From positions 1,024,001 to 1,088,000 of the forward strand of contig CAXXDQ010000003.1 of the NCBI GenBank assembly GCA_963664325.2: 64,000 nucleotides of DNA, in the 5' to 3' direction. Shown here one piece after another: positions 44,496 to 62,682 of the stretch. The position numbers and the translations under genes were made by a program. Under the pieces are notes generated by a model. It had not been told where the DNA came from. It did not search any database and saw only the letters and a list, made by a program, of their open reading frames with translations. Origin of the DNA: Desulfomonilia bacterium. GTDB lineage: Bacteria > Desulfobacterota > Desulfomonilia > UBA1062. Each line of letters begins with the position of its first letter. Positions within the stretch are counted from its first letter, which is position 1.

Positions 44496-46967
44496 TTAAT
44501 CCCAGATTACATACGTGATGTCATCGAAGAACATCTCGTCAGCGCCTGAGTATATGTAGTCGTAGCCGGCAAAAGCGAGAGTTGTAACATACCGGTCAAC
44601 GGCATACGGTGTTGTAGAATTCTCCCCTCTGTAGGCCCAGGTGTTTTTTGCAAAAGTGGGGGGATCATCGGGGCCGATCTCTTTGAATACTGCACCGTCC
44701 AGCAGGAGCTTGGTGTTGATGTTGGAACCACCAAAGATATTCGGGTACCAGTTCAGCCACAGGCCCACCGAGATCATATAGGCATTGACCGGGGTGGTCA
44801 CTATGGTCGTATTGGATGAACCGGAACTCAAGTTGGAGTGGATGTCATAGGAATGGCTAGCGCTGTTATATCTGTCAGTGGAGATTCTCCTGTCCACGTT
44901 GCCGATTGCAGTTGTAACGGACCAGGTCCCCATTCCGCTCTCCCAGTCCTGGATGATCGTAGCCTGCGACGTGGTCAGCGTAACCGTGTCGATGCCGCTG
45001 TTTTCCGTTCCGTCGTTCACGACCAGATTGATCACATAGGAGCCCGGCTTGTCGAGGGTGATGGTCGGATTCATGACGGTCGAGCTGGAAAGTGCGGCGG
45101 AGCTTCCGACCGGCTTGCTGGTAAGTGTCCAGGCATAGGTAAGCGGGTCACCGTCAATGTCAGAGCTTCCGTTCCCGTTAACCTGGGCCATGCGATTGGC
45201 ATAGTGGACGGTCTGATTTGAACCGGCCTCGGAAACAGGTGCGTTGTTGGTTGAATTGATCTGGACCGTATCGGCGTTGCTGTTCACCGTGCCGTCATTC
45301 ACCACCAGGCTCAGTACGTAGTTGCCCTTCTTGTCCGGTGTGAAGGTCGGATTCGCGATGGACGGGTTGGAAACTCCTGCCGAGCTGCCCGCCGGGGCTG
45401 AAACGACGGCCCAGGTAAAGGTCAGGGTATCTCCGTCGATATCGGAACCGCTGCCGTTAAGCTGTGCCGAGTGGTGTGAGAGAATGTTTATGTCGTTGCC
45501 TGCGTTCGCAACCGGTGCATTGTTTGTGGTCGTGAGCGTTACCGTGTCCGGTGCGCTTGCGAGGTTTTCATTATCCTTGACGATCAGGCTGAACGTGTAT
45601 GTGCCTTTCTTGTCGGATGTGAAATACGGATTTTGGATGTTGGCATCGGAAAGTGCCGCCGTGCTTCCTGACGGGGCTGACTCAATTGTCCACGCATAGG
45701 TGAGGGGATCGTTGTCCGGGTCGGTCCCGCTGCCGTTCAGCTGTGCCGTCTGGGTGTAGGGGATGCTCATCGGTGCCCCGGCTTCGGCCACAGGCACATG
45801 GTTGGAGCAGGTTATCTGCACAGTATCTTCAGCGGTGAGGTCGCCGTCGCTTACGATAAGCTTGAGGATATATGCCCCTTTCTTGTCAGGCGTGAATGTC
45901 GGGTTGACGATGGAGTCGTCGGACAGCATGGCTATGCTCCCGCCGGGCCTTGACGTTACCGACCATGAGTAAGTCAGCGCCGTGCCGTCGGGGTCCGTGC
46001 TCAGGCTGCCGTCGAGATGGGCCATAGCCCCGAAGTCCGATACCGTGATGTCATTGCCTGCGTTTGCAACTGGTGCGGTATTATAGACTGTTACGTTGAT
46101 CCAGTCGACGCCGCTGTCGAAAGTACCGTCGTTCACGACCAGCCTTATGACGTAAAGGCCCTTCTTGTCGGGCGTGAAGCTTGGTGTCATGCTGTGGATA
46201 TTGTCAAGCACCGCTGAACTGCCGGCCGGGGCGGTGTCGATTCCCCATGTGAAGGACAGGCCGTGATGCTCTGGGTCGCTGCTGGCGCTGCCATCGAGAG
46301 TGACCTGATTGCCGAACACGACGTTCTGGTCAGCCCCTGCATCGGCCGTTGGCGGGAGGAAATCCGAATAGACGTTGATTACTACCGCATCACTGGCGCT
46401 GTTGGATTCGCCGTCGTTAACAATCAGGCGGATTGTGTAGGCGCCTTCGATATCTGGAGTAAAGCCCGGGTTGACAGCGTAGGGGTCGTCAAGGGCTGCA
46501 TTGCTGCCGGACGGTCTTCCAACCATGGTCCAGAGGTAGACCAGCGAATGGGACTCAGGGTCTGAGCTGGCGCTGCCGTCCAGGGATACGTCGTTGCCGA
46601 AATACACGTTCTGGTCAGGGCCTGCATTGGCAATCGGCGGCAGGTTGTAGTAGACTTCCACAGTCCACTCTTTTACCAGCGTCTTGCCGTTGAGCAGGTC
46701 CTTGGTCTGCACCTTGAAGGTGTTTGTGCCCTTGTCGCCGGCCTCGGCGTAGTATGTGTAGGATGCGCCGGAGGCCCCGCCAATAACCGTGCCGTTCTTG
46801 TACCATTCATACGGGCCGTTCAGCATGCCCGAGACCTTGAACGTCTGGGAGACGCCCACCTTTATTGTGATCGGAGAACCGGTTGAAGGAGTGGTACTCA
46901 TGATGCAGCCACTCAACCAAAGGGCCATGATGGAAAATATGGCCAACAGCATTGCATTTTTTCTCAT
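44496..46967 (-). CDS. Lipoprotein with 6 PKD-like repeats and variable tip
   Basis: ATG after AGGAGG; lipobox LSGC; ends DDITYVIWD. Confidence 0.9.
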   Translation of the reverse strand: MRKNAMLLAIFSIMALWLSGCIMSTTPSTGSPITIKVGVSQTFKVSGMLNGPYEWYKNGTVIGGASGASYTYYAEAGDKGTNTFKVQTKDLLNGKTLVKEWTVEVYYNLPPIANAGPDQNVYFGNDVSLDGSASSDPESHSLVYLWTMVGRPSGSNAALDDPYAVNPGFTPDIEGAYTIRLIVNDGESNSASDAVVINVYSDFLPPTADAGADQNVVFGNQVTLDGSASSDPEHHGLSFTWGIDTAPAGSSAVLDNIHSMTPSFTPDKKGLYVIRLVVNDGTFDSGVDWINVTVYNTAPVANAGNDITVSDFGAMAHLDGSLSTDPDGTALTYSWSVTSRPGGSIAMLSDDSIVNPTFTPDKKGAYILKLIVSDGDLTAEDTVQITCSNHVPVAEAGAPMSIPYTQTAQLNGSGTDPDNDPLTYAWTIESAPSGSTAALSDANIQNPYFTSDKKGTYTFSLIVKDNENLASAPDTVTLTTTNNAPVANAGNDINILSHHSAQLNGSGSDIDGDTLTFTWAVVSAPAGSSAGVSNPSIANPTFTPDKKGNYVLSLVVNDGTVNSNADTVQINSTNNAPVSEAGSNQTVHYANRMAQVNGNGSSDIDGDPLTYAWTLTSKPVGSSAALSSSTVMNPTITLDKPGSYVINLVVNDGTENSGIDTVTLTTSQATIIQDWESGMGTWSVTTAIGNVDRRISTDRYNSASHSYDIHSNLSSGSSNTTIVTTPVNAYMISVGLWLNWYPNIFGGSNINTKLLLDGAVFKEIGPDDPPTFAKNTWAYRGENSTTPYAVDRYVTTLAFAGYDYIYSGADEMFFDDITYVIWD

Positions 46968-47083: not shown

Positions 47084-47110
47084 TGGAGGAAGGCCAAGGG
47101 CCTTCCTCCA
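47084..47110 (-). terminator. Intergenic hairpin / putative terminator
   Basis: TGGAGGAAGGCC-AAG-GGCCTTCCTCCA perfect 12 bp stem followed by AGTTTT on the minus strand. Confidence 0.7.
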
Positions 47111-47127
47111 GTGTTGCTGAACCTCTC

Positions 47128-50100
47128 CTAATTCCAGATAGTGACAGAGATGTCATCGGAGTACATACTATGCGATATATAAGTAGCACCTCCGGTGCCG
47201 TTCATCCTGAGTGTAATATCCGTTACCACCCGGTTGGGAGCCCAGGAATACTGTGTCCAGGAGTTGTTGCCGCCATAATGGACCCTCTCGGTGGTGCCCT
47301 CGAAAATGCCAGCTAGGTCTGCCGGGAACTTTTCCGCCACGGGGGTATAGAACCAGGCGCTCATTGATATTACAAATTTGCCCGCATAATTGGTTACACT
47401 GGCATAGCCAGACCCGCAATTGCCGAGGAAATTATTACAGTCAGATATCTGATAACCATTTGATCCTGAACGTTTTTGGTTGCCGTTAACTCCCACAGTG
47501 CCCATGTTAGAGCCCTTGTATGCAGTCCATGCGACACCATTGCTGTCGTTCAAGCTGCTCTCCCACCCTGTGGTGTACGTAGCCTGCGACGTGGTAAAGG
47601 TGACCGTATCGGCGGCGCTGCTCGCTTCGCCGTCGTTCACGACAAGGCTGAAGGTATATGTGCCCGGGGTGGCTATGGTGAAGCTCGGGGTCATGGTGTT
47701 GGGATTTGTGATCGTTACCGTCGTACCGGCAGTCTGTGTCCATGCGTAGGTCAGTGTATCGCCGTCAGGGTCCGAACTGCCGTTCCCGTTGAGCGTGACT
47801 GCGCGGTTGGCATAGAGGAGCGCGCTATTACCGGTGCCTGCCTCGGCCGTTGGCGCACGGTTGGATGCGGTGATGGTCATGGTGTCCGCCGCACTGTTCG
47901 TCTCGCCGTCGTTCACGATCAGCTGTATTGTGTACGAACCCGACTTGTCCGGCCTGAACGTCGGGTTCACGATGGTTGTGCTGGAAAGTGCCGCCGTGCT
48001 GCCGGAAGGCCTTGCCGTTACCGACCATGCATAAGTCAGAGCATCGCCGTCCGCGTCTGAGCTGCCGCTGCCGCTCAGGTTCACAAGGGTGTTCTTGTAG
48101 ACGCTCTGGTTTGTGCCAGCCTCGGCCACAGGCGCGCGGTTGGTTGCTGTGACGGTCATTGTGTCAGCCGCGCTGCTCACGGTGCCGTCGTTCACGATCA
48201 ACTGGATCGTGTAAACGCCCTTCTTGTCCGGCGTGAACGTCGGGTTCACGATCGCGGCATTGGAAAGGGTGGCCGTGCTGCCGGAAGGCCTGCCGGTTAT
48301 CGACCATGCATAAGTCAGCGTGTCGGAGTCAGGATCTGAACTGCCGCTGCCGCTCAGGCTGGCCGTTCCGCCGTTTACGAAGCTCTGATTGGCTCCGGCC
48401 TCGGCAGTTGGCGCCCTGTTGGGCACAGTGATGGTCATTGTATCAGTGGTGGTGTTGACGCCGTCGAACACGCTGAGCCGCAGAGTAAATGCGCCCTTCT
48501 TGTCAGGCGTGAAGGTCGGGTTCCAGATGGTCGTGCTTACCGGCTGGGCCGTGCTGCCGGACGGTGCCGAGATGACCGACCATGTCGGGTATAGCGGCTG
48601 GGATTCAGGGTCAACGCCGCTTCCGCTGAGACTTGCGGTCTGGCCCTTGTAGACCGGGTTCTGATCCGGGCCGGCCTCAGCCGTTGGCGGGTCGTTGTAG
48701 GCCGTGATCGTTACGAAGTCAGCCGCGCTTACGTTGACGCCGTCGGATACGGTGAGGCTGATCAGGTATGCGCCCTTTCTGTCAGGTGTAAGGGTCGGGG
48801 CTATTGCATTGACGTTGGAAAGCCCTGCGCTGCTGCCTGACGGTGCTGAAACGATGGCCCATGTGTAAATCAGCGTCTCGTTCTCCGGGTCGTGGCTGCC
48901 GCTGCCGTTGAGCGTTGCGGTCAGGCCCGTGCCGAAGAAGATGCTCTGATCGCTGCCTGCTTCCGCAGTAGGCGCTTCGTTGGGCACTGTGATGGTCATG
49001 GTGTCCGCTGAGCTTGCGTTGACTCCGTCGTTCACGGTCAGGCTCATTACGTATGCGCCTGACTTGTCCGGTGTGAAGGTCGGGTTTGCTATGGCTGCGT
49101 TGGAGAGTGCCGCAACGCTGCCTGCCGGGGCGCTGGTGATGGTCCATGCAAAGGTAAGCGGCTGGGATTCAGGATCGATGCCGCTCCCGTTAAGCGTTGC
49201 CAGCGTGTTCCATACGACTATCTGATCAACGCCTGCCTCGGCCGTCGGGGCCTCGTTGTATGCGGTTATTGTGACGGAATCCGCGGCGCTTACATTGACG
49301 CCGTCGGATACGGTGAGGCTGATCAGGTACACGCCTTTCATATCAGGCGTCAGGCTCGGCGATATCGCGTTGACATCGGATAGTGCGGCTGCACTGCCGA
49401 TAGGGGCGCTTGTTATCGTCCAGTGGTACGTCAGAGGGTCGCCTTCAGGATCGTGGCTTCCGCTCCCGTTAAGGGTGGCCGCCTCTCCCAGGCCGAAGAA
49501 GATGCTCTGGTCGCTGCCTGCTTCAGCAGTCGGCGCATTGTTGGCTACCGTGATCGTGACCGTATCAGGCGCGCTTGAGTTGACTCCATCGTTCACGACG
49601 AGGCTGATCACATACTGTCCCGATTTGTCCGGTGTGAAGGTCGGGGACACCGTGGCCGCGCCGGAAAGTGTTGCTGTGCTGCCTGTCGGGGCGCTGGTGA
49701 TGGTCCATGCGAAGCTGAGAGGCTGGCCTTCAGGATCGAAGCTGCCGTTGCCATTGAGCGTAGCCAGGGTGTTCCAGACAACGTCCTGGTTGGCGCCGGC
49801 ATCGGCCGTTGGCGCTGCGTTGCCAGCGGTTACGGTAAGCGTATCAGCGGAGCTGAAATTGGTTCCATCAGATACGACGAGGCTGAGCACATATTCGCCT
49901 GCCCTGTCCGGTATGAAGCTCGGACCCGCTATAGCCGGATTGCTGAGCGCTACGGTGCTGCCGGCTGGACGTGTAGTGATGGTCCACGCATAGGTAAGCG
50001 TCTGGTTTTCTGGATCGGTGCCGCTTCCGCTAAGCGTTACCACTGCGCCGTAACCGAAGAGCACGTTCTGGTTCGGCCCTGCTTCGGCAGTCGGCGCATT

Positions 50101-53100
50101 GTTGGGCACATTGATTGTGACCGTGTCGGCGGAGCTTGTGTTGACTCCATCGGACACGATGAGGCTGAATACGTAATCGCCGGTCTTGTCCGGTGTGAAG
50201 CTCGGATTTGCGATGGCCGGGTTGGAGAGTGAGGCAAGGCTGCCGGCCGGGGCGCTTGTGATGGTCCACGCATAGGTGAGAGGCTGGGATTCAGGATCAG
50301 TGCCGCTACCGCTGAGCGTTGCCAGTGTGTTCCAGGTGACGGTCTGGTTGTCACCGGCCTCTGCCGTAGGTGCCGCGTTGTAGGCAGTTACGGTTACCGT
50401 GTCAGCGGTGCTTAAGTTGACGCCGTCGGACACGGTGAGGCTTATCACGTATGCGCCCATCTTATCCGGGGTGAAGCTCGGATTCACGATGGCCGGGTTG
50501 CTGAGAGCTACGGTGCTGCCTGCCGGACGCGATGTGATGGTCCACGCATAGGTGAGCGGTTCGCCTTCAGGATCATGGCTGGCACTGCCGTTGAGTGTTG
50601 CAATCGCGCCGTAGCCGAAGAGGACGTTCTGGTCCGCACCGGCATTGGCTATGGGCGCCGTGTTGGGCACCGTGATGGTCATGGTATCCGGGGTGCTGAA
50701 ATTGACTCCGTCGCTAACGACAAGGCTCATTACATACGCGCCTGACTTGTCCGGTGTGAAGGTCGGGTTTGCTATGGCCGCGTTGGAGAGTGCCGCCACG
50801 CTGCCGGCCGGACGTGAGGTGATGGTCCACGCGTATGTGAGAGGCTGGGATTCAGGATCGGTTCCGCTACCGCTGAGCGTTGCCAGCGTGTTCCATGTGA
50901 CCGTCTGGTTGTCACCGGCATTGGCTGTCGGGGCCGCGTTGTAGGCTGTGATTGTTACCGTGTCAGCGGCGCTTGTGTTGACGCCGTCGGATACGGTTAG
51001 GCTCATGACGTAAGCGCCCAGTTTATCCGGTACAAAGGTCGGGTTCGCGATGGCCGGGTTGGAAAGTGCCGCAACGCTGCCGGCCGGTGCGCTGGTGATA
51101 GTCCATGCATAGGTCAGAGGCTGGGATTCAGGATCGTTGCCGCTGCCGCTGAGCGTTGCCGCCGCGCCGTAACCGAAGAGGACGTTCTGATTTGCTCCGG
51201 CCTCTGCCGTCGGTACGAGGTTACCGGACGTGATTGTCATCGTGTCAGGAGCACTTGAGTGGACTCCGTCGTTCACGACGAGGCTCATCACATATGAACC
51301 CATCTTGTCAGGTGTGAATGTCGGGTTTGCGATGGACGTGTTGGAAAGTGCCGCGGTACTGCCGGCCGGTGCGCTGGTTATGGTCCACGCATAGGTGAGA
51401 GGCTGGGACTCTGGATCAATGCCGCTGCCGCTCAGTGTCACGGATGCACCGTAACCGAAGAGGACGCTCTGATCCGCTCCGGCGTTAGCCGTTGGTGCTA
51501 GGTTGCCGGCTGTGACTGATACCGTGTCGGCTGCGCTCAGGTTGACTCCGTCGGATACGACCAGGCTGATTACATACACGCCCTGCTTGTCAGGCGTTAA
51601 GGTCGGATTCACGATGGCCGGATTACTGAGTGCAGCAAGGCTGCCTGAAGGAGCGCTGGTGATGGTCCACGCATAAGTCAGCGGGTCGTTCTCCGGGTCA
51701 TGGCTGGCGCTCCCGTTGAGTGTTGCCGTTGCGCCGTAGCCGAAGAGGATGTTCTGGTCACTGCCTGCTTCCGCTGTTGGTGCCGTGTTGGGTACCGTAA
51801 TTGTTACCGTGTCGGCGGTGCTGAAATTGACGCCGTCGGACACGATGAGGCTCATTACATACGCACCGGTCTTATCCGGTGTGAAGGCCGGGTTGGCGAT
51901 GGCCGCATTGGAGAGCGCCGCATGGCTTCCTGCAGGTGCGCTGGATATGGTCCATGCGTAGGTAAGCGGCTGGGCTTCAGGATCGGTCCCGCTGCCGTTC
52001 AGAGTTGCCAGGGTGTTCCATGCAACCGTCTGGTTCTCACCGGCCTCGGCCGTCGGGGCCACGTTGTAGGCGGTTATGGTGACTGCATCCGGGGCGCTCA
52101 GGTTGACGCCGTCGGATACGACCAGGCTGATCAGGTACGTGCCCTTCTTATCGGGCGTCAGTGTCGGGGAGACCGAGCTCGGGTTAACCAGTGCGGCGCT
52201 GCTGCCGGACGGTGCAGAAACAATCGTCCAGGTATAGGTCAGCGCGTCGTTGTCCGGGTCTGAGCTGCCGCTCCCGTTAAGTGTTGCGGTGGCGCCCAGG
52301 CCGAAGAATATGCTCTGGTCCTCGCCCGCTTCAGCAGTGGGCGCGCGGTTGGGTGCGGTGATGGTCATGGTGTCCGCGGAGCTGAAATTGACTCCATCGG
52401 AAACGATGAGGCTCATTACATAGGCACCCGGCTTATCCGGCGTGAAGCTCGGATTTGCAATGGCTGCGTTGGAGAGTACCGCCACACTGCCTGCCGGGGC
52501 GCTGGTTATGGTCCACGCATAGGTGAGGGGCTGGGATTCAGGATCGGTGCCGCTCCCGTTGAGTGTCGCCATTGTGCCCACGTTGAGAGGATTGATATCC
52601 GCGCCGGCATTGGCCGTTGGTGCCAGGTTGTAGGCGGTTATTGTTACCGTGTCCGCAGCGCTTACATTGACCCCGTCGGATACGGTGAGGCTCAGCACAT
52701 ACGCGCCTTTCTTGTCAGGCGTGAAACTCGGTGCAATTGCTGCCGGATCTGAAAGTGCGGCGCTGCTGCCGACCGGGGCGCTGGTGATGGTCCATGAGTA
52801 GGTCAGCGGATCGCCTTCGGGATCTGAGCTACCGCTCCCGTTAAGGGTTACCGAGGCTCCGAGGCCGAAGAAGATGCTCTGGTCCGCACCGGCTTCGGCC
52901 GTAGGTGCCGTATTGGGAACGGTGATGGTGACAGTATCGCTGGCGCTGTTGACCCCGTCGGATACGGTTAGGGTAAGTACATACGCGCCCGTCTTGTTCG
53001 GAGTGAAGGTCGGGTTTGCGATGGCCGGGTTGGAGAGTGCAGCGGTGCTGCCTGTCGGAGCTGTGGTGATAGCCCAAGCAAAGGTGAGCGGCTGGGCTTC

Positions 53101-56100
53101 GGGATCGGTGCCGCTGCCGTTCAGCGTGGCAAGGGTGTTCCAGGCCACGGTCTGGTTGTCGCCGGCCTCCGCGGTGGGCGGCTGGTTGGTTGCCGTGATC
53201 GTGAGGATATCTGCGGCGCTGTACATGTCGCCGTCGAACACGACCAGGCTGACCGTGTACACGCCCGCCTTATCCGGCAGGAATGTCGGATTCACGATAG
53301 ATGAGCTTGAAAGAGCGGCCGTACTTCCTGCCGGACGGGAGGTAATGGTCCAGGAATAAGTCAGCGGCTGGCTTTCAGGGTCTGAGCTCAGGCTGCCGTC
53401 GAGATTCGCCAGAGCGCCGTAACCATAGATAAGGCTGATATCAGCACCTGCTTCCGCTACAGGCGCATTGTTGGTTACGTTGACTGTCAGAGTATCGGCG
53501 GTGCTTGTCATGACCCCGTCGGACACGACAAGGCTGAGCTCATATACGCCTGACTTGTCCGCTGTAAAGGTCGGATTTGCGATAGCAGCGTTGCTTAGAA
53601 CTGCGGCGCTGCCTGCCGGCTTCGAGATCATGGTCCACGCAAAGGAGAGAGGATAGCCTTCAGGGTCTGTACTGCCGCTTCCGTTCAGGGCTACTGTCTG
53701 GCCGTGAGCCGCGTTTATATCGGTGCCTGCATTGGCCGTAGGTGCCTGATTGGCTGCGGTTACCGTGAGGGTATCGGCGGAGCTGAAGAGATATCCGTCG
53801 CTTACGACAAGGCTGATGACATAAACACCTTGTATATCCGGGATGAAGCTGGCGTTGACATTGGCGGGATTGGTTATCGCAGCAAGGCTGCCCGATGGTG
53901 CCGATATGACTGTCCATGCATAGGTCAATGATGCGCCATCCGGGTCGGAGCTGGCGCTTCCGTCAAGGTTCGCTGCAGCGCCGTAACCGAAGATGATGCT
54001 CTGATCCGATCCGGCCTCGGCCGTTGGCGGATGGTTTGTTACGGTAATGGTTATCGTGTCGGCGGAGCTGAAGAAGGCCCCGTCGGATACGATAAGGCTG
54101 ATCACATAAACGCCTACCAGATCAGGGCTGAAGGTCGGATTCACAAGGCCCGGATTGGTTATGATGGCGCTGCTGCCGGCCGGGGCCGAAGTGATGGTCC
54201 AGGACCATGATATTATCATGGTTCCATTGGGGTCATAGCTTGCGCTGCCGTCAAGAGATGCGGTCTTGCCGGGGAAGCCGAGACTCTGGTCCGCTCCGGC
54301 ATTAGCCACGGGCATGTCGCCGACTGTTAGGGTGAGCGCATCGGCCGGGCTGTAATCGTACCCGTCAAACACGACCAGGGTAATTACATACACGCCTTTC
54401 TTGTCCGGCGTCAGGCTCGGGGTTGCAGTAGAAGGTCCTGTCAGTGCGGCAACGCTGCCGGACGGGGCTGTGGCGATTTCCCATGTATAGGAGAGAGGCA
54501 GGCCTGACGGGGCATGGCTTGCGGTCCCGTCGAAGTTGGCCGTTACGCCGGGGAAGCCGATTTGCTGGTTCGGCCCGGCCTCGGCCGTTGGTCCGGTATT
54601 GACTGCCGTGATGGTAAGGCTGTCAGCGGCGCTGTACATATCTCCGTCATAAACGACAAGGCTGATCACATAGGTGCCTGGCAGGTCCGGGGTGATGGAA
54701 GGATTCACAATGTTGGAGCCGGGAAGAAGTGCTGCATGGCTGCCGTAAGGTGCGCTGGTGATCGTCCACTCATAGGAGAGCGGTGAGGCTTCAGGGTCTG
54801 AGCTTGCGCTTCCGTCAAGGGTTATGGTCTCGCCGGAACCGAATGTGAAGCTGTAGTCAGAGCCCGCTTCGGCCGTAGGTGCGTTGTTGTATACGTTAAT
54901 CTTCATCGTATCCTGGATGCTGTTTGCTTCGCCGTCATTAACGACAAGGCCGATCACGTACTCGCCTTTCCTGTCGGGCAGGAAGGTCGGATTTGCGATT
55001 GCGGTGTTCGATAGCGCGGCAGTGCTGCCGGCCGGGGCCGAGATGATCGTCCAGGCATAGGTCAGCGGGTCGCTGTCCAGGTCGGTTCCGCTCCCGAGGA
55101 GCTGGGCCGTCTTGTTGGGGAAGGCTATGGTGATGTCATCGCCGGCCTCGGCCACGGGTGCGTGGTTTGTGGTAGTGATGACCACCTCATCCGGTGCGCT
55201 TACAATGCCTTCGCTGCATGTCACGATAAGCTGGATGGTATATATGCCCTTCCTGCTTGGCGTGAAAACCGGATTGACGATTGAAGCATTTGAAAGCTGG
55301 CCGATGCCGGTGTCAGGACCGGAAGTTATTGTCCAGGCAAAACTCAGCGAATCGCTGTCCGGGTCTGAGCTGGCGCTGCCGTCGAGCTGGGCCGAAGCGC
55401 CGAATTCGATGGAGGCGTCCGCGCCTGCGTTGGCCACGGGAACGTTGCTGGAGCAGGTTACTATGACCGTGTCCTCGGCGGTAAGGTCGCCGTCGCTCAC
55501 AGTCAGTTTCATTACATATGCGCCCCTTATATCAGGTGTGAAGGTCGGATTTGCGATGGCCGCGTTCGATAGAGCTGCAAGACTGCCGGCCGGGGCCGAG
55601 GTTATCTCCCAGGCAAAAGTCAGGGTGTCGCCGTCCGGGTCTGAGCTCCCGCTCCCGTTGAGTGTGGCGGTTCCACCCAGGGGGACGGTGACATCAGCGC
55701 CGGCATTGGCAACAGGCGCTGTATTGGTTACAGTGATTGTCAGCGTATCCTTGCCGCTGGTAAGAAGGCCGTCGCTCACGATCAGGCCTATTACATAAAC
55801 ACCCGTCTTGTCGGGAGTGAATGTCGGTGTGGCGCTGGTGGGATTTAATATTACGGAGGTGCTGCCGGTTGGTTTCGTGTCGATGGTCCACGCATAGGTC
55901 AGTACGGTTTCAGGGTCCGGATCGGAGCTGCCTGTCCCGTCAAGATGGACTGTCCGGAAGAGGTGGACGGTCTGGTCAGGGCCGGCTTCGGCCGTAGGCG
56001 GACGGTTGCCGGTAGAGGCATTGATGGTGACGGTATCCGTAGCTGTCTTCTCGCCGTCGCTTACTATAAGGGTGACTGTGTATCCGCCCACTAAATCAGG

Positions 56101-56610
56101 CGTAAAGGTCGGATTGACTATATAGGGATCGTCGATCGTGGCGGTGCTGCCTGCCGGCGCAGTGGTGATCGACCAGGTGAAGGTCAGAGGCTGGCTTTCC
56201 GGGTCAGAGCTGGAGCTGCCGTTGAGATGAACCGGGATGCTTGGTGTAGCGTTTTGATCAGGACCTGCATTGGCAATCGGCGGCAGGTTGGTGACCACGT
56301 TCACGTTCCATTGCTTTACGATGATCTTGCCGGAAAGCGAGTCCTTGGTCTGCACCTTCAATATGAAGATGCCCCCGTCCGCTTCAAGGGCCGTGTATTT
56401 ATAAGAGGCCGTTATGGCGCCGGGTATGACCACATTATTTTTGGACCACTCATAAGGCCCGTTCATGAAACCAGACACCGTAAAGGTCTTGCTGGCTCCT
56501 ACGTTCAGTGTGATGGGCACTGATGTTGAAGGGCTGGTGGAAATGATACAGCCGCTCAACCATAGGGCCAAAATGGAAAACATGACCAGCAACATTGAAT
56601 TTCTTCTCAT
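47128..56610 (-). CDS. Giant lipoprotein (about 3160 aa) with 31 PKD-like repeats and variable tip; putative adhesin
   Basis: ATG after GAGGAGG; lipobox LSGC; 31 PxAxAG-initiated units of about 93 aa counted by eye; ends DDISVTIWN. Confidence 0.9.
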   Translation of the reverse strand: MRRNSMLLVMFSILALWLSGCIISTSPSTSVPITLNVGASKTFTVSGFMNGPYEWSKNNVVIPGAITASYKYTALEADGGIFILKVQTKDSLSGKIIVKQWNVNVVTNLPPIANAGPDQNATPSIPVHLNGSSSSDPESQPLTFTWSITTAPAGSTATIDDPYIVNPTFTPDLVGGYTVTLIVSDGEKTATDTVTINASTGNRPPTAEAGPDQTVHLFRTVHLDGTGSSDPDPETVLTYAWTIDTKPTGSTSVILNPTSATPTFTPDKTGVYVIGLIVSDGLLTSGKDTLTITVTNTAPVANAGADVTVPLGGTATLNGSGSSDPDGDTLTFAWEITSAPAGSLAALSNAAIANPTFTPDIRGAYVMKLTVSDGDLTAEDTVIVTCSSNVPVANAGADASIEFGASAQLDGSASSDPDSDSLSFAWTITSGPDTGIGQLSNASIVNPVFTPSRKGIYTIQLIVTCSEGIVSAPDEVVITTTNHAPVAEAGDDITIAFPNKTAQLLGSGTDLDSDPLTYAWTIISAPAGSTAALSNTAIANPTFLPDRKGEYVIGLVVNDGEANSIQDTMKINVYNNAPTAEAGSDYSFTFGSGETITLDGSASSDPEASPLSYEWTITSAPYGSHAALLPGSNIVNPSITPDLPGTYVISLVVYDGDMYSAADSLTITAVNTGPTAEAGPNQQIGFPGVTANFDGTASHAPSGLPLSYTWEIATAPSGSVAALTGPSTATPSLTPDKKGVYVITLVVFDGYDYSPADALTLTVGDMPVANAGADQSLGFPGKTASLDGSASYDPNGTMIISWSWTITSAPAGSSAIITNPGLVNPTFSPDLVGVYVISLIVSDGAFFSSADTITITVTNHPPTAEAGSDQSIIFGYGAAANLDGSASSDPDGASLTYAWTVISAPSGSLAAITNPANVNASFIPDIQGVYVISLVVSDGYLFSSADTLTVTAANQAPTANAGTDINAAHGQTVALNGSGSTDPEGYPLSFAWTMISKPAGSAAVLSNAAIANPTFTADKSGVYELSLVVSDGVMTSTADTLTVNVTNNAPVAEAGADISLIYGYGALANLDGSLSSDPESQPLTYSWTITSRPAGSTAALSSSSIVNPTFLPDKAGVYTVSLVVFDGDMYSAADILTITATNQPPTAEAGDNQTVAWNTLATLNGSGTDPEAQPLTFAWAITTAPTGSTAALSNPAIANPTFTPNKTGAYVLTLTVSDGVNSASDTVTITVPNTAPTAEAGADQSIFFGLGASVTLNGSGSSDPEGDPLTYSWTITSAPVGSSAALSDPAAIAPSFTPDKKGAYVLSLTVSDGVNVSAADTVTITAYNLAPTANAGADINPLNVGTMATLNGSGTDPESQPLTYAWTITSAPAGSVAVLSNAAIANPSFTPDKPGAYVMSLIVSDGVNFSSADTMTITAPNRAPTAEAGEDQSIFFGLGATATLNGSGSSDPDNDALTYTWTIVSAPSGSSAALVNPSSVSPTLTPDKKGTYLISLVVSDGVNLSAPDAVTITAYNVAPTAEAGENQTVAWNTLATLNGSGTDPEAQPLTYAWTISSAPAGSHAALSNAAIANPAFTPDKTGAYVMSLIVSDGVNFSTADTVTITVPNTAPTAEAGSDQNILFGYGATATLNGSASHDPENDPLTYAWTITSAPSGSLAALSNPAIVNPTLTPDKQGVYVISLVVSDGVNLSAADTVSVTAGNLAPTANAGADQSVLFGYGASVTLSGSGIDPESQPLTYAWTITSAPAGSTAALSNTSIANPTFTPDKMGSYVMSLVVNDGVHSSAPDTMTITSGNLVPTAEAGANQNVLFGYGAAATLSGSGNDPESQPLTYAWTITSAPAGSVAALSNPAIANPTFVPDKLGAYVMSLTVSDGVNTSAADTVTITAYNAAPTANAGDNQTVTWNTLATLSGSGTDPESQPLTYAWTITSRPAGSVAALSNAAIANPTFTPDKSGAYVMSLVVSDGVNFSTPDTMTITVPNTAPIANAGADQNVLFGYGAIATLNGSASHDPEGEPLTYAWTITSRPAGSTVALSNPAIVNPSFTPDKMGAYVISLTVSDGVNLSTADTVTVTAYNAAPTAEAGDNQTVTWNTLATLSGSGTDPESQPLTYAWTITSAPAGSLASLSNPAIANPSFTPDKTGDYVFSLIVSDGVNTSSADTVTINVPNNAPTAEAGPNQNVLFGYGAVVTLSGSGTDPENQTLTYAWTITTRPAGSTVALSNPAIAGPSFIPDRAGEYVLSLVVSDGTNFSSADTLTVTAGNAAPTADAGANQDVVWNTLATLNGNGSFDPEGQPLSFAWTITSAPTGSTATLSGAATVSPTFTPDKSGQYVISLVVNDGVNSSAPDTVTITVANNAPTAEAGSDQSIFFGLGEAATLNGSGSHDPEGDPLTYHWTITSAPIGSAAALSDVNAISPSLTPDMKGVYLISLTVSDGVNVSAADSVTITAYNEAPTAEAGVDQIVVWNTLATLNGSGIDPESQPLTFAWTITSAPAGSVAALSNAAIANPTFTPDKSGAYVMSLTVNDGVNASSADTMTITVPNEAPTAEAGSDQSIFFGTGLTATLNGSGSHDPENETLIYTWAIVSAPSGSSAGLSNVNAIAPTLTPDRKGAYLISLTVSDGVNVSAADFVTITAYNDPPTAEAGPDQNPVYKGQTASLSGSGVDPESQPLYPTWSVISAPSGSTAQPVSTTIWNPTFTPDKKGAFTLRLSVFDGVNTTTDTMTITVPNRAPTAEAGANQSFVNGGTASLSGSGSSDPDSDTLTYAWSITGRPSGSTATLSNAAIVNPTFTPDKKGVYTIQLIVNDGTVSSAADTMTVTATNRAPVAEAGTNQSVYKNTLVNLSGSGSSDADGDALTYAWSVTARPSGSTAALSSTTIVNPTFRPDKSGSYTIQLIVNDGETNSAADTMTITASNRAPTAEAGTGNSALLYANRAVTLNGNGSSDPDGDTLTYAWTQTAGTTVTITNPNTMTPSFTIATPGTYTFSLVVNDGEASSAADTVTFTTSQATYTTGWESSLNDSNGVAWTAYKGSNMGTVGVNGNQKRSGSNGYQISDCNNFLGNCGSGYASVTNYAGKFVISMSAWFYTPVAEKFPADLAGIFEGTTERVHYGGNNSWTQYSWAPNRVVTDITLRMNGTGGATYISHSMYSDDISVTIWN

Positions 56611-56741
56611 CGGATCCTCCTCAATTTTGTATGCATGCAACCATAACGGATGCATGCCCTTTTAAATTCCCTGAAACCCCTCTAACCAAGTTATATATAT
56701 TGAATAAATAATTCCTTATTTCTTATCTCTTGCAAATCAAT

Positions 56742-56770
56742 CAGGGGAAAGGCCTGCGGCCTTCCCCCTG
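56742..56770 (-). terminator. Intergenic hairpin / putative terminator
   Basis: CAGGGGAAAGGCC-TGC-GGCCTTCCCCCTG. Confidence 0.6.
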
Positions 56771-56784
56771 TTCTGCATCAAGTT

Positions 56785-59700
56785 TTATCTCCAGACTATG
56801 TACGTGATGTCATCGAAGAACATTTCGTCGGCACCCGAATATATATAGTCATAACCGGCAAAGGCTATGGTTGTGGCCTCACCGTTGCAGTTATAAGGTG
56901 TCGAGCTGGTATCCCCTCTGTAGGCCCAGGTGTTCTTGGAGAAAGTAGGGGCATCATCAGGGCCGATCTCTTTCCAGGCTACACCGTCCTTCAGGAGTTT
57001 TGTATTAATGCTGGAGCCTCCGAATATATTCGGATACCAGTTCAGCCATAAGCTAACTGAAACCAGATAGGCCGGGCTGCCGCCGTTTAAGTTGGTGGTA
57101 ACTATGGTCGTGTTGGATGAGCCGGAACTTATATTCGAGTGTATGTCGAAGGAATAGCTGGCGCTATGACTTCTATCACTGGAGATTCTCCTGTCCACAG
57201 TTCCGATTGCTGTAGTGATGGCCCAGTCGCCCATGCTGTTGTCATCCCAGTTCTTGGTGACTGTTACAAGGGCCGCCGTAGTGAGGGTGACTGTGCTGGC
57301 GCCGCTGCTTACCGTACCGTCATTCACGGTCAGGCTGATCACGTAGGTGCCCGGCCTGGTGAGGTTGGCGGTCGGTGTCGCGCTCGTTGGATTGGTAATG
57401 GTTGCGGTATTTCCGCTCGTCACTCCGGAGTATGGCGTGAAGGATGTGATCGACCAGGAGTAGGTCAGCGAGTCGCCGTCCGGGTCAGAGCTGCCGCCGC
57501 CATTGAGGCCGACCGCGCGACCGGCGTATGCTATGTTGCTGACGGCAGAACCGGCATTGGCCGTAGGCGCCCTGTTGGGTGTGGTGATGATCATGGTATC
57601 GGCAACGCTGGTGTTAACCCCGTCGGACACGACCAGGCTTAAAGTATAGGAACCTTTCTTGTCCGGCGTGAATGTCGGATTGAAGATGTTAATGTTGGAA
57701 GGCTGTGCAGTGCTTCCTGACGGCCGTGCGGTGACTGACCATGTAGGTGTCAGGGGCTGGCCTTCATCATCAAAACCGCTCCCGTTCAGTGTCGTTGCTA
57801 CACCTACGTACAGAGGGTTGACATCAGCGCCGGCATTGGCCGTCGGGGCTGCATTGTAGAACATGATGCTGACCGTGTCGGCTGTGCTTGCGTTGACCCC
57901 GTCGTTCACAACCAGGCTGAGCACATACGAACCCTTCACGGTCGGTGTAAAGACCGGACCCGCTATGTTGGCATTGGACAGCTGGCTGATGCTGGTGTTC
58001 GGTCCGGAGGTGATGGTCCACGCGTAGGTGAGCGGCTGGGATTCCGGGTCGGTGCCGCTGCCGGCAAGTGTTGCCGTGGCGCCTGAACCGGAGAAGAAGA
58101 CGCTCTGGTTCGAGCCGGCTTCGGCCGTTGGTGCCACGTTGTAGGCCGTGATTGTTACCGCATCGGATGCGCTCAGGTTGACACCATCTGATACGACCAG
58201 GGTGATCAGGTACGCGCCCTTCTTATCCGGGGTAAGGGTCGGGTGTATCGCGTGGATATCGGAAAGGGAAGCGCTGCTGCCTGACGGTGAGGATACGATG
58301 GCCCAGGTGTAGGTCAGGGTATCGCCCTCCGGGTCGTGACTGGCGCTGCCGTCAAGCGTGGCCGTCAGGCCTGTGCCGAAAAAGATGTTCTGGTCAGGCC
58401 CTGCTTCGGCAGTCGGCGCATTGTTGGGCACGGTGATTGTTAACGTATCGGTTACGGTGTTGACCGCGTCGGATACGGAGAGAGTGAGCACGTACGAGCC
58501 TGACTTGTCAGGTGTGAAGCTCGGGGTAAGGGTGGACGCGCCGGAAAGTGCGGCGGTGCTGCCGAACGGTGCGCTGGTGATGGTCCACACATAGGTCATG
58601 GGCTTTGATTCAGGATCGGTGGCGGTCCCGCTGAGCGTGGCCAGCGTGTTCCAGGTAACGGTCTGATTGGAACCGGCATCTATCGTCGGCGCCACGTTGT
58701 AGGCCGTTATGGTGACCGCATCGGCGGCGCTTACATTGACCCCGTCGGATACGGTGAGGGTGATCAGATATGTACCCTTCTTGTCAGGTGTCAAGCTTGG
58801 GGATACAGCAGCCGGGTCGGAAAGTGCTGCTGCGCTGCCCACAGGGGCGCTGGTGATGGTCCACGAGTAGGTCAGCGGGTCGCCTTCGGGATCGGAGCTT
58901 GCGCTCCCATTAAGGGTGGCCGTTTCACCCAGGCCGAAGAAGATGTTCTGATCGGCACCTGCTTCCGCTGTCGGCGCATTGTTGGGTACGGTTATGGTTA
59001 CTGTATCAGTTGCGGTGTTTACACCGTCGGATACGGTCAGTGTGATTACGTATGCCCCGGTCTTGTTCGGGGTGAAAGAAGGAGATGCTGTGGCCGCGCC
59101 GGAAAGTGTTGCTGTGCTGCCTGTCGGGGCCGATGTGATAACCCATGCATAGGTGATCGGGTACGCCTCGGGATCGAAGCTACCGCTGCCGTTGAGCGTG
59201 GCCAGGGTGTTCCAGGCGACGGTCTGATTGTCGCCGGCCTCGGCATGGGGTGCCGCATTAGCTGCAGTGATGGTGAGGGTATCCGGGGTGCTGTACGTAT
59301 CACCATCGTAAACGACAAGACTGACTGTGTACTCGCCCGCCTTATCCGGAAGGAAGGTCGGATTGACTATTGTTGAGCTGGAAAGTGCAGCCGTGCTGCC
59401 TGCCGGACGGGCGGTGATAGTCCATGCATAGGTCAGAGGCTGGCTTTCCGGATCGGAACTCAGGCTCCCGTCGAGGTGCGCCAGGGCGCCGTAACCGAAG
59501 ATAAGGCTGATGTCCGCACCGGCATTGGCTATTGGCGCATTGTTGCTAACGATAACGGTTACCGTATCCGCGGCGCTGGTCATGACTCCGTCGGAAACGA
59601 CAAGGCTGATCACATAGGACCCCGACTTATCTGCGATGAAGGTCGGATTTACGATGGCCGGGTTGGAAAGTGCAGCCGTGCTTCCTGACGGACGAGAAGT

Positions 59701-62682
59701 GATGGTCCACGCATAAGTGAGAGAATGGCCTTCAGGGTCAGTGCTGCCGCTGCCGTTAAGGGCCACGGTCTGGCCGTGGGCTGCGTTTATATCGGCTCCG
59801 GCATTGGCCGTGGGCGCCTGGTTGGTTGCGGTTATTGTAAGGGTGTCGGCGGCGCTGAAGAGATAGCCGTCGCTTACGATAAGGCGGATAACATACACAC
59901 CCTGCAAGGCCGGAATGAAAGCGGGATTGACTATGGCCGCGTTGGAGAACTGGGCAATGCTGGTGCTTGGTCCGGAGGCTACCGTCCATGCATAGGTGAG
60001 CGTTGCGCCGTCCGCGTCGGAGCTGGCGCTTCCGTCAAGGTTGGCTGCGGCGCCGTAGCCGAAGATGACGCTCTGATCGGCACCGGCTTCTGCAACGGGC
60101 TGATGGTTGATAACTGTAATGGTTACCGTATCGGCGGTGCTGAAGAAGGCCCCGTCGGAAACGACAAGGCTGATCACGTAAACACCCACCTTGTCAGGCG
60201 AGAATGTCGGATTCACAAGGCCCGGGTTGGTTATTATGGCGGTGCTGCCGGCCGGATGCGAAGTGATAGTCCAGGACCATGAGATTATCATGGTTCCGTT
60301 GGGGTCATAGCTCGCGCTTCCGTCGAGGAATGCGGTTTTTCCTGGGAAGCCGAGGCTCTGGTCAGGGCCGGCATTGGCCACGGGCATATCACCTACGGTA
60401 AGGGTGACCTCGTCCGCCGGGCTGTAATCGAACCCGTCAAACACGATCAGAGTGATCCTGTATACGCCCTTCTTGTCGGGGGCCAGGCTCGGATTTACGA
60501 TGGCGGTATTGGATAGTGCTGCGGTACTGCCTGACGGTGCAGAAACGATTTCCCAGGTATATGAGAGCGGAAGGCCTGAAGGGGCATGGCTGGCGATCCC
60601 GTCAAAATAAGCCGTTATGCCGGGGAAGCCGATATGCTGATCAGGTCCGGCCTCGGCCGTTGGACCGGTATTGATGGCAGTGATGGTAACGCTGTCCGCG
60701 GCGCTGTACAGATCGCCGTCAAACACGATGAGGCTGATCACATAGGTGCCAGGTATGTCGGGTGTTATGGAAGGATTCACGATGTCCGAGCCGGGAAGAA
60801 GCGCTGCCGTGCTGCCGTAAGGTGCGCTGGTTATGGTCCACGAGTAGGCCAGCGTGGTATCGGGGTCTGGATCAAAACTGGCGCTTCCGTTAAGATGAAC
60901 CGTCTCGCCGGTGCCGAAAGTAAAGCTGTAATCAGAGCCTGCCTCGGCTGTCGGTGCGTTGTTGTATACGTTTATAGTGAGTGTATCCTCAATACTGTTT
61001 ACCTCACCGTCATTTACAATGAGGCCGATCACATACGGGCCTTTCATGTCGGGCAGGAATGTCGGATTTGTAATAGTCGGGCTGGAAAGCTCCGCAATAC
61101 TGTCTTCCGGACGCGAGATGATTGTCCACTGGTAGGTCAGCGGGTCGCTGTCCGCATCGGTTCCGCTTCCGAGAAGCTGGACTGTCTTATTGGGGAAGCC
61201 GATGGTGATGTCGCCGCCGGCCTCTGCAACAGGGGCGTGGTTTGTGGTTGTGATGACAACTTCATCAGGTGCACTGGCAAGGCCTTCGCTGTCGGTCACA
61301 ATCAGGCTGAGCGTATAGATGCCTTTCCTGCTGGGTGTGAAGACCGGATTAACGATTGTGTTATTGGAAAGCTGGCCGATGCCGGTATCCGGTCCGGACG
61401 TAATCGTCCAGGCAAAACTCAGAGAGTCGCCGTCCGGGTCTGAGCTGGCGCTTCCGTTGAGATTGGCTGTCTGGCCGAATTCGATGGTGGCATTCGTTCC
61501 TGCGTTGGCGACTGGCACGTTATTGGAACAGGTTACTATAACAGTGTCTTCAGAGGTAAGGTCGCCGTCGCTTACAGTCAGTTTAAATCCATATGCACCC
61601 CTTACATCAGGATTGAAGGTTGGTGCCGGGCTGGATGCATCGGAAAGAATAGCCAAGCTGCCGGTCGGCCGTGAGGTGATTACCCAGGCATATGTCAGAA
61701 TGTCGCCGTCCGGGTCTGAGCTTCCGCTCCCGTTTAGGTTTGCCGTTGAGCCGAACAGGACGGTGATATCAGAGCCGGCCTCGGCAATTGGTGCGGTGTT
61801 GGCTACAGTTATTGTAAGTGTATCCTTGGAGCTGGTCAATTCGCCGTCACTTACTATAAGTCCCAGCACGTAAGTACCTGTCTTGTCTGGTGTGAATGTC
61901 GGCGTTGCGCTGGTGGGGTCTGCTATCCCGGCGGTGCTGCCTTCCGGTTTTGTATCGACTGTCCAGGCATAGGTTAGAGGCTGGTGTTCGGGGTCGAAGC
62001 TCGCAGTCCCGTCAAGAGAAGCTGTCCTGGAGAGGTGGACGGCCTGGTCTGGGCCGGCATTCGCAGTAGGTGGATGGTTACCGATAAAGGAATTAATGGT
62101 GACGGTATCTGTAGCTGTTTTCTCGCCGTCACTTACGATAAGCGTGATTGTGTAACCGCCCTCTAGATCTGGTGTGAAGGTCGGATTGACGATATATGGA
62201 TCGTCAATAGTGGCAGTGCTTCCTCCTGGTGCGGTGGTAATAGACCAGGTATAGGACAGAGGCTGGCTTTCAGGGTCTGAACTGGCGCTGCCGTCAAGCG
62301 TAACCAGGGTGCCGGGAGCAACGCTTTGATCTGGGCCCGCATTGGCTGTGGGCGGCAGGTTTGCTACAACATGCACGTTCCATTGCTTTACAAGTATCTT
62401 GCCGGATAGCGAGTCTTTGGTCTGCACCTTCAGTACGAAAATGCCCGCATCCGCCTCAAGAGCCGTATAGCTATAGGATGCCTTTATAGCCCCGGGAATT
62501 ACAATATCGTTCTTGGACCATTCATATGGACCATTCATTAGACCGGTCACGGAAAAGGCCTTTGATGCGCCTACATTGAGTGTGACAGGTGCTGTCGTTG
62601 AAGGACTTGTAGAAATGATACAACCACTCAACCAAAGAGCCATAAGCGAAAACATGGCTAACAATATTGCATTTCTCTTCAT
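56785..62682 (-). CDS. Large lipoprotein (about 1965 aa) with 18 PKD-like repeats and variable tip; putative adhesin
   Basis: Lipobox LSGC; 18 repeats counted by eye; ends DDITYIVWR. Confidence 0.9.
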   Translation of the reverse strand: MKRNAILLAMFSLMALWLSGCIISTSPSTTAPVTLNVGASKAFSVTGLMNGPYEWSKNDIVIPGAIKASYSYTALEADAGIFVLKVQTKDSLSGKILVKQWNVHVVANLPPTANAGPDQSVAPGTLVTLDGSASSDPESQPLSYTWSITTAPGGSTATIDDPYIVNPTFTPDLEGGYTITLIVSDGEKTATDTVTINSFIGNHPPTANAGPDQAVHLSRTASLDGTASFDPEHQPLTYAWTVDTKPEGSTAGIADPTSATPTFTPDKTGTYVLGLIVSDGELTSSKDTLTITVANTAPIAEAGSDITVLFGSTANLNGSGSSDPDGDILTYAWVITSRPTGSLAILSDASSPAPTFNPDVRGAYGFKLTVSDGDLTSEDTVIVTCSNNVPVANAGTNATIEFGQTANLNGSASSDPDGDSLSFAWTITSGPDTGIGQLSNNTIVNPVFTPSRKGIYTLSLIVTDSEGLASAPDEVVITTTNHAPVAEAGGDITIGFPNKTVQLLGSGTDADSDPLTYQWTIISRPEDSIAELSSPTITNPTFLPDMKGPYVIGLIVNDGEVNSIEDTLTINVYNNAPTAEAGSDYSFTFGTGETVHLNGSASFDPDPDTTLAYSWTITSAPYGSTAALLPGSDIVNPSITPDIPGTYVISLIVFDGDLYSAADSVTITAINTGPTAEAGPDQHIGFPGITAYFDGIASHAPSGLPLSYTWEIVSAPSGSTAALSNTAIVNPSLAPDKKGVYRITLIVFDGFDYSPADEVTLTVGDMPVANAGPDQSLGFPGKTAFLDGSASYDPNGTMIISWSWTITSHPAGSTAIITNPGLVNPTFSPDKVGVYVISLVVSDGAFFSTADTVTITVINHQPVAEAGADQSVIFGYGAAANLDGSASSDADGATLTYAWTVASGPSTSIAQFSNAAIVNPAFIPALQGVYVIRLIVSDGYLFSAADTLTITATNQAPTANAGADINAAHGQTVALNGSGSTDPEGHSLTYAWTITSRPSGSTAALSNPAIVNPTFIADKSGSYVISLVVSDGVMTSAADTVTVIVSNNAPIANAGADISLIFGYGALAHLDGSLSSDPESQPLTYAWTITARPAGSTAALSSSTIVNPTFLPDKAGEYTVSLVVYDGDTYSTPDTLTITAANAAPHAEAGDNQTVAWNTLATLNGSGSFDPEAYPITYAWVITSAPTGSTATLSGAATASPSFTPNKTGAYVITLTVSDGVNTATDTVTITVPNNAPTAEAGADQNIFFGLGETATLNGSASSDPEGDPLTYSWTITSAPVGSAAALSDPAAVSPSLTPDKKGTYLITLTVSDGVNVSAADAVTITAYNVAPTIDAGSNQTVTWNTLATLSGTATDPESKPMTYVWTITSAPFGSTAALSGASTLTPSFTPDKSGSYVLTLSVSDAVNTVTDTLTITVPNNAPTAEAGPDQNIFFGTGLTATLDGSASHDPEGDTLTYTWAIVSSPSGSSASLSDIHAIHPTLTPDKKGAYLITLVVSDGVNLSASDAVTITAYNVAPTAEAGSNQSVFFSGSGATATLAGSGTDPESQPLTYAWTITSGPNTSISQLSNANIAGPVFTPTVKGSYVLSLVVNDGVNASTADTVSIMFYNAAPTANAGADVNPLYVGVATTLNGSGFDDEGQPLTPTWSVTARPSGSTAQPSNINIFNPTFTPDKKGSYTLSLVVSDGVNTSVADTMIITTPNRAPTANAGSAVSNIAYAGRAVGLNGGGSSDPDGDSLTYSWSITSFTPYSGVTSGNTATITNPTSATPTANLTRPGTYVISLTVNDGTVSSGASTVTLTTAALVTVTKNWDDNSMGDWAITTAIGTVDRRISSDRSHSASYSFDIHSNISSGSSNTTIVTTNLNGGSPAYLVSVSLWLNWYPNIFGGSSINTKLLKDGVAWKEIGPDDAPTFSKNTWAYRGDTSSTPYNCNGEATTIAFAGYDYIYSGADEMFFDDITYIVWR

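Follow-up and report, generated by a model that had tools for sequence, protein, structure and literature searches.

How do proteins whose stalks differ widely in length come to end in nearly the same domain, and proteins whose stalks match come to end in different ones? The question is raised by a stretch of 64,000 nucleotides (nt) from a Desulfomonilia bacterium (assembly GCA_963664325.2, contig CAXXDQ010000003.1, positions 1,024,001 to 1,088,000), referred to here as the window. Positions 32142-62718 of the window are a single minus-strand array of eight long genes, five of them named A-type and three B-type in this work (Table 1). There are nine A-type paralogues in the genome, these being the five in the window and four at a second locus. 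We consider it probable that they form a paralogous family of N-terminally lipid-anchored, fibrillar-adhesin-like proteins, the C-terminal tips of which have been replaced as cassettes over the course of evolution.

The A-type proteins all have the same order of parts: a hydrophobic leader with a lipobox of the form L(S/A)GC, a module of about 100 residues, a series of tandem units of about 93 residues each (the stalk), and 139-159 C-terminal residues (the tip). The lipoboxes were identified by eye from the sequence, and L(S/A)GC follows a hydrophobic leader in all five window proteins, in keeping with the export and cell-surface anchoring that fibrillar adhesin-like proteins have. The tandem-domain stalk of such proteins is present as well, with 6, 6, 6, 18 and 31 PKD stretches. 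These repeat counts agree across a motif count, the Pfam K319L-like_PKD stretches and a custom repeat hidden Markov model, with which all nine family genes have 6-31 repeats; the count of 31 in A3175 is that of the assembly only, because the short-read contigs are fragmented at about 48.7-52.7 kb. The starts originally proposed for A832 and A1977 (46967 and 62682) are plausible internal ATGs in longer open reading frames (ORFs) at 44496-46994 and 56785-62718. On the tip residues, Pfam gives no family in any of the five window proteins (E <= 0.01).

The original prediction was that the 6-repeat protein A832 and the 18-repeat protein A1977 carry nearly the same tip, and this is the case: the two are 73% identical over 154 aligned residues, the nine other tip pairs among the ten in the window being 23-34% identical. 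The likeness is above chance (tblastn E = 8e-72; clade support 98-100%). The stalks follow other lines. Repeats 1-13 of A1977 and A3175 are colinear, as had been proposed, with 73-89% protein identity and 75-85% DNA identity on the diagonal, and off-diagonal identities that are mostly 40-65%; past repeat 13 the best partners are scattered, and the two tips share 23% identity. The three 6-repeat stalks also proved to be homologous and colinear (66-91% between A832 and A825, 61-77% against A808), and these bear tips that are 27-34% identical.

The repeats within a stalk have themselves moved far apart. Repeats 12-27 of A3175 are a mutually closer block, with 62-81% DNA identity, and form an old internal expansion. 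DxDxD-type motifs are present in the repeats. The highest DNA identity between any two repeats is 81% within A3175 and 72% within A1977, and neighbouring repeats in the nine genes have median protein identities of 46-59%, with 77% as the highest value. Repeats this diverged (<= 81% DNA identity) do not allow rapid change of stalk length, and the differences in stalk length stem from old internal expansion.

When the genome, which has 4.3 Mb in nine contigs, is searched by tblastn, the second locus is found on contig C4, at 744314-779612. It is built of A-B-C units, the C gene encoding a lipoprotein that has both PKD and RCC1-like repeats, and its A genes have 10, 8 and 6 repeats, together with a frameshifted 6-repeat gene, C4_Apsi (C4 752752-755263), which has three frameshifts in its first 450 nt and an intact set of six repeats and tip. 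Encoded in the middle of this locus (760472-763731) are a histidine kinase and a response regulator of the LuxR type.

When the nine genes are compared part by part, the N-terminal module, repeats 2 and 3, the penultimate repeat and the last repeat all give the same groups: A825 with A832 and then A808, A1977 with A3175, C4_A1198 with C4_A1029, and C4_A840 with C4_Apsi. The tips pair otherwise, A832 with A1977 (73%) and A3175 with C4_Apsi (63%), all other tip pairs among the nine being 20-35% identical. In maximum-likelihood trees, the stalk and tip groups have 96-100% support. The tree of the stalk heads, from which C4_Apsi was omitted owing to its frameshifted 5' end, has clades including (A1977, A3175) and (A832, A825, P0002) at 98-100% support, P0002 coming from a separate assembly, whereas the tip tree has the clades (A1977, A832, P0002) and (A3175, C4_Apsi, 9-repeat, 19-repeat). 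Approximately unbiased (AU) tests on the stalk-head data reject the tip clade (A832, A1977, P0002) with p = 7e-46. On the tip data they reject (A1977, A3175) with p = 1.3e-4, (A832, A825) with p = 0.008, (A832, A825, A808) with p = 1.5e-4 and (C4_A840, C4_Apsi) with p = 0.005. The stalk and tip phylogenies are therefore incongruent, with rejection in both directions, and the congruence of trees that would have refuted the original prediction is not seen.

The edges of the exchanged piece can be read from the sequences on either side. In an alignment across the junction, A832 tracks A825 up to the linker '...TLTTSQ-ATI' and A1977 from the next residues on, and its last repeat is 76% identical to that of A825 and 50% to that of A1977. 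At the other end, the DNA similarity of A832 and A1977, which is 73% over 594 nt, stops at the stop codon. Given that the switch is in the linker and that the similarity ends at the stop, the exchanged unit in the window is the tip alone. The 3' edge of the tip cassette is marked by a GC-rich hairpin, GGGGAAGG-loop-CCTTCCCC, which is found about 10-50 nt past the stop codon in all nine A-type genes (in the window after 56785, 47128, 44496, 39437 and 34373, and on contig C4 after 747910, 755263, 767410 and 774812), and which could be a terminator or attenuator.

Relatives of these tips are few. The A832 tip has four matches in a collection of 5.8 billion proteins, two being the window's own proteins, and as the single query against 41 related genomes it found matches in two, the source genome itself (G000) being one. 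Among 1.84 billion representative proteins a tip profile found 51 at E <= 0.001, of which 17 reach E <= 1e-10. PKD repeats are present in 15 of the 51, in stalks that have 1-18 units, although some of the 15 are fragments. For full-length A genes, related loci were collected with an alignment of the B-type proteins, and the congeneric genome G003 was added. The tip alignment is without any conserved stretch of 7-10 columns. The joint tip tree has 30 rows, of which 26 differ. Tip type T2 is found in it on stalks of 6, 9, 19 and 31 repeats, T1 on stalks of 6 and 18, and T4 on stalks of 10 and 6, and T3 is on two stalks of 6 repeats with only 50-60% identity between them. The A808 tip is 78% identical to the tip of a 6-repeat protein in related metagenome-assembled genomes (MAGs), and the A3175 tip, besides its likeness to C4_Apsi, is 53-56% identical to the tips of the 9- and 19-repeat proteins in related MAGs. 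In a small sample, the repeat number is constant among orthologues: 8 repeats in 6/6 (five different genomes or contigs plus C4_A1029), 19 in 3/3 MAG loci and 9 in 3/3.

It is among the relatives that more recent exchanges are visible. L010_A1013 and L011_A1020 occupy the same position in two related MAGs, and the protein identity between them is 87-97% over repeats 1-7, falling to 75% in repeat 8 and to 35% in the tip. At the DNA level, identity is 81-97% upstream, across the stalk and in the downstream B gene, and 38-46% over the tip (L010 9432-9847). In P0010, repeats 1-7 resemble G003_A1025 (78-88%), and repeat 8 and the tip resemble C4_A1029 (83% and 89%), with the crossover between repeats. 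The 8-repeat genes L012_A1028 (L012 6800-9886) and G003_A1025 (L007 427-3504) agree at 97-99% over repeats 1-5 and at 99% over the tip, with 81% and 64% in repeats 7 and 8, the mark of an internal patch exchange within the stalk. It should be added that the near-identical loci L008-L013 are titled Bacteriovoracaceae, Christensenella and Oscillospiraceae, so that at least some of the taxon labels must be wrong.

The original prediction held that recombination between repeats reassorts tips onto stalks. The reassortment is borne out, both by the incongruent histories and by the presence of T2 on stalks of 6, 9, 19 and 31 repeats. The proposed position of the crossover does not hold for the window, where the breakpoint is in the linker after the last repeat, and only in relatives does the exchanged piece take in part or all of the last repeat.

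The relative age of the exchanges was estimated from synonymous divergence (dS, by the method of Nei and Gojobori, with 95% bootstrap intervals in brackets). The A832 and A1977 tips have a dS of 1.10 (0.71-1.95) and the stalks 1.80 (1.38-2.99). For the A3175 and C4_Apsi tips the value is 0.56 (0.39-0.77), and for the sister stalks C4_A840 and C4_Apsi it is 1.38 (1.07-1.84); these intervals do not overlap, and therefore the shared tip is younger than the split of the stalks. Stalk dS is 0.84 for A1977 and A3175 and 0.76 for A832 and A825. With a dS of about 0.6-1.1, the exchanges within this genome are old, which makes the 'swapping' of tips an evolutionary history and not a running process; there is no evidence for a running switch.

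The mechanism that we infer from these observations is recombination. The family would have grown by gene duplication, by old internal expansion of the stalk repeats and by repeated replacement of the tip cassette. In each replacement a tip would pass from one paralogue or strain to another through homologous recombination or gene conversion, with the 5' crossover in or just past the conserved last PKD repeat and the 3' crossover at the stop codon or in conserved downstream sequence. A tract of 1,292 nt with sharp edges, in which B700 and B704 are exactly identical, indicates that the locus is recombinationally active, unless it is a polishing artefact (see below). The outcome of the replacements would be a repertoire in which tip type, and with it binding specificity, is combined in various ways with stalk length, and with it reach.

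Structure prediction gives clues as to what the tips may do. The 11 aligned tips are one family, with W12, W107, D145 and W152 invariant. The AlphaFold model of the tip, built on this 11-tip alignment, is an all-β sandwich with a predicted local distance difference test score (pLDDT) of 80.6, and has the β-sandwich jelly roll typical of carbohydrate-binding modules (CBMs). Compared with the Protein Data Bank (PDB) using Foldseek, it has 56 matches at E <= 0.001, led by CBM61, CBM16, CBM22, CBM11 and CBM4 with TM-scores of 0.5-0.62, and including the receptor-binding parts of phage tailspikes. An Atlas search with the tip has galactose-binding-like and CBM_4_9 clusters as its leads. The CBM-like sandwich is C-terminal, at the end opposite the lipobox, with no match to a known adhesive Pfam domain, and such a fold would suit a tip that binds a ligand. 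An Omp85/BamA gene (221.7 bits) in the genome shows the organism to be diderm; a stalk of 18-31 Ig-like domains would be too long for a periplasm, which favours display on the surface. The stalks would have reaches of roughly 25, 70 and 120 nm if an Ig unit measures about 4 nm.

A more dynamic process than the one described here is in our view unlikely. It would be an organised, currently active exchange of cassettes, in which the conserved flanks act as anchors and tips are moved often among paralogues in populations, as in antigenic variation. The hairpin conserved behind 9/9 A-type genes would suit it, as would the clean cassette replacement between the two close MAGs (L010/L011), the patch exchange between L012_A1028 and G003_A1025, and the 1,292 nt over which B700 and B704, each of which lies just downstream of an A gene, are perfectly identical. 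This tract, B700 38012-39303 and B704 43078-44369, covers codons 6 to about 436, the PASTA stalk, and beyond it identity drops abruptly to 55-78% in the C-terminal part. Its source is a very recent gene conversion whose breakpoint falls at a domain boundary, or else an artefact of polishing. One short-read contig stops about 30 nt inside it, as a true repeat would give.

Against active exchange, the tip exchanges in this genome are old (dS 0.56-1.10), and silent tip cassettes are not found. In a six-frame search of the whole genome with the tip profile (E <= 0.01, frames >= 60 aa), from which very divergent tips could escape, all matches were C-terminal in the nine full-length A-type frames; since every copy of the tip ends a full-length A-type frame, there are no silent or orphan cassettes. 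The scan of 20 ORFs that flank the array in the window gave no recombinase or reverse transcriptase dedicated to the locus either, the search covering reverse transcriptases, invertases and tyrosine/serine recombinases; the only related gene is an IS110-family transposase. This gene (7829-8884, minus strand) is located in a stretch of lower GC content, 23 kb from the array. The short-read contigs contain no alternative junctions, which is a weak argument given that contigs drop rare variants.

A stronger version of the same idea, which we also regard as improbable, makes the A-type genes a dedicated repertoire of 'reach times specificity'. Built-in anchors would be provided on one side by the last PKD repeat and on the other by the GGGGAAGG hairpin together with the 5' end of the B genes, which is near-identical; tips would move among paralogues or strains at a rate relevant to populations, and the tandem-LuxR regulators described below would choose which combination is displayed. 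If true, an uncultured anaerobe would have an equivalent of antigenic or adhesin variation that is based on lipoproteins.

There is very little room for the possibility that the mosaics are chimeras, assembled from repeats in a metagenome-assembled genome. Such an origin might be suspected from an assembly in nine contigs, from the breaking of short-read contigs within A3175 (about 48.7-52.7 kb), and in principle from the exact identity of 1,292 nt in B700 and B704, if this is a polishing artefact. A weak joint of 50403 to 52798, with 21 letters on its shorter side, is present in one contig each of runs X1 and X3, and was treated as a repeat artefact. However, Logan contigs with no differences cross all three stalk-tip junctions (in X1 at 44340-46155, 46511-48763 and 52661-58426, with equivalents in X3 and X4), and the stretch is contained in four runs of one sample. 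Run X5 has the same species label and comes from a different sample; with about 4% of it read, no reads fell on the stretch. No RNA run was found among those that contain the stretch. Pairs of repeats are at most 81% (A3175) and 72% (A1977) identical in DNA, and a megablast comparison of the window with itself at >= 88% identity yields B700/B704 as the sole match. The same combinations of stalk and tip also occur in independent assemblies, P0002 likewise having 6 repeats and T1, and a long stalk with T2 being seen again in three further MAG loci.

Vertical descent without exchange, by which tips would evolve fast under diversifying selection and the two similar pairs across clades would be due to constraint or convergence, is already disfavoured and hardly credible: tips do outpace stalks in orthologues (G003_A854 and C4_A840, stalk 78-83%, tip 52%; L008_A2040 and L009_A2035, repeats 1-18 80-96%, tip 62%), but in the AU tests the tip data reject the stalk clades and the stalk data the tip clade, the A3175 and C4_Apsi tips have a synonymous divergence below that of the sister stalk of C4_Apsi with non-overlapping intervals, and the step in L010/L011 DNA identity from 81-97% to 38-46% and back is abrupt, which excludes a gradual change of rate as its source.

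The replacement of tips as cassettes is itself subject to several points that weigh against it. On the tip data (C4_A1198, C4_A1029) is only marginally rejected, with a borderline p of 0.049. Synonymous sites are near saturation, and for A832 and A1977 the proportion of synonymous differences (pS) in the tip, 0.578 (0.459-0.694), overlaps with that in the stalk, 0.682 (0.630-0.736), as do the dS intervals. The read support is not independent, because the runs of one sample may be the source of the assembly, and for the combination of 18 repeats and T1 in A1977 there is no independent orthologue among the relatives found. As regards function, the tip does not belong to a defined CBM family, the five window proteins having no Pfam match there (E <= 0.01) and the identity to solved CBMs being 9-17%, and it is only the architecture and the class of fold that suggest surface exposure, adhesion and glycan binding.

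Table 1. Positions of the A-type and B-type genes, tips, hairpins and leader in the window.
Feature	Position	Strand	Description
A1977	56785..62718	-	1977 aa; lipobox, Ig-like base module, 18 K319L-like PKD repeats, T1 tip; likely start ATG 62682 (MKRNAILL)
A3175	47128..56655	-	3175 aa; lipobox, base module, 31 PKD repeats, T2 tip
A832	44496..46994	-	832 aa; lipobox, base module, 6 PKD repeats, T1 tip; likely start ATG 46967 (MRKNAMLL)
A825	39437..41914	-	825 aa; 6 PKD repeats; stalk sister to that of A832; T8 tip
A808	34373..36799	-	808 aa; 6 PKD repeats; T3 tip
A1977 tip	56788..57264	-	159 aa, type T1; 73% identity to A832 tip, 23% to A3175 tip
A3175 tip	47131..47577	-	149 aa, type T2
A832 tip	44499..44957	-	153 aa, type T1; modelled β-sandwich with CBM-like Foldseek matches
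A825 tip	39440-39889	-	type T8
A808 tip	34376-34792	-	type T3
B704	42270..44384	-	lipoprotein downstream of A832; base module, 5 PASTA repeats, FN3-like domain, further C-terminal domain
B700	37216..39318	-	lipoprotein downstream of A825
B712	32142..34280	-	lipoprotein downstream of A808
Hairpin after A1977	56742..56770	-	GC-rich, 13 bp stem, starts 15 nt past stop codon
Hairpin after A3175	47084..47110	-	GC-rich, 12 bp stem, same type as that of A1977
Leader upstream of A1977	62719..63690	-	AT-rich non-coding, about 1 kb, 39% GC

The B-type proteins B712, B700 and B704 have a leader and N-terminal module like those of the A-type, followed by five PASTA repeats and a further C-terminal region. 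For the C-terminal 280 residues the model has a pLDDT of 67.9, and Foldseek gives no matches at E <= 0.001, with weak FN3-like matches to the first part only. The idea that B is a partner specific to a given tip was considered and is rejected for now: between L010 and L011 the tip has been replaced, and the downstream B gene is still 80-97% identical. The N-terminal module is more widespread still: 57 of the genome's reading frames begin with it (61 domain hits at E <= 0.001), those of the B and C genes among them, and their distal parts are varied. From this distribution, the module of about 100 residues behind the lipobox looks like a general base module for the surface lipoproteins of this organism.

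The leader upstream of A1977 contains GTAGCGCGCAnCTAnAGGGTT twice on the minus strand, at 62753-62773 and 62811-62831, 58 nt apart. In shuffles there are on average 0.02 matches, and none of 100 shuffles has two; the paired copies may be binding sites for a regulator. A regulator of 755 residues with two LuxR-type helix-turn-helix regions (residues ~308-369 and ~691-743) is encoded at 19732-21999 (minus strand). Its sole paralogue in the genome, with 50% identity over 734 residues, is at 1188374-1190557 on contig C3, where it adjoins a cluster of lipoproteins whose members carry the base module.

Variable C-terminal modules that are swapped by recombination behind a conserved region are a feature of the CdiA/Rhs polymorphic toxins and of phage tail-fibre tips. 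Unlike CdiA/Rhs, the A-type locus showed no toxin/immunity pair or orphan cassettes, and the downstream B gene is unchanged when the tip is replaced. With the β-jelly-roll CBMs (CBM61 2xom, CBM16 3oeb, CBM22 1dyo, CBM11 6r31 and CBM4 1gu3), the tips share a class of fold (Foldseek E 2e-5 to 7e-4, TM-scores as given above). They differ from these CBMs in their low sequence identity, and in being joined to a stalk lipoprotein and not to a glycoside hydrolase.

Fibrillar adhesins are described as being anchored at the surface, with Ig-like domains in tandem as their stalk and a domain of putative binding function far from the anchor, in many combinations of stalk and adhesive domain (Monzon et al., BMC Genomics 2021, PMC8286594). 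The A-type proteins share this plan of anchor, stalk and distal domain. Their anchor is instead an N-terminal lipobox with a base module, and not a sortase motif, an autotransporter or a type 1 secretion system (T1SS), and adhesion is putative; the main text of PMC8286594 does not contain the words 'PKD' and 'lipoprotein'. Periscope proteins, as described by Whelan et al. (PNAS 2021, PMC8201768), also hold a functional domain off the cell on a repeat stalk of variable length. They were detected by repeats with >= 80% identity, and closely related strains have them in different lengths as a result of intragenic recombination. The A-type repeats, with the medians of 46-59% and the maximum of 77% given above, fall short of this identity, and A-type orthologues, in what is a small sample, keep their repeat number. 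In adhesins such as CshA, domain shuffling is described as moving ligand-binding folds onto new scaffolds (Proteins 2023, PMC10952558). The fold and the organism differ in the present case, which concerns paralogues within one genome and has the boundaries of the cassette mapped.

A description of the A-type family was not found in full-text searches of the literature, which yielded general concepts only; the supplementary tables of the surveys cited could list relatives. Modular adhesins and domain shuffling are already established concepts, and the A-type proteins are a previously undescribed and rare family. With cassette boundaries mapped to within a few residues and exchanges on three time scales, the family is a clean natural case of the combination of specificity with stalk length.

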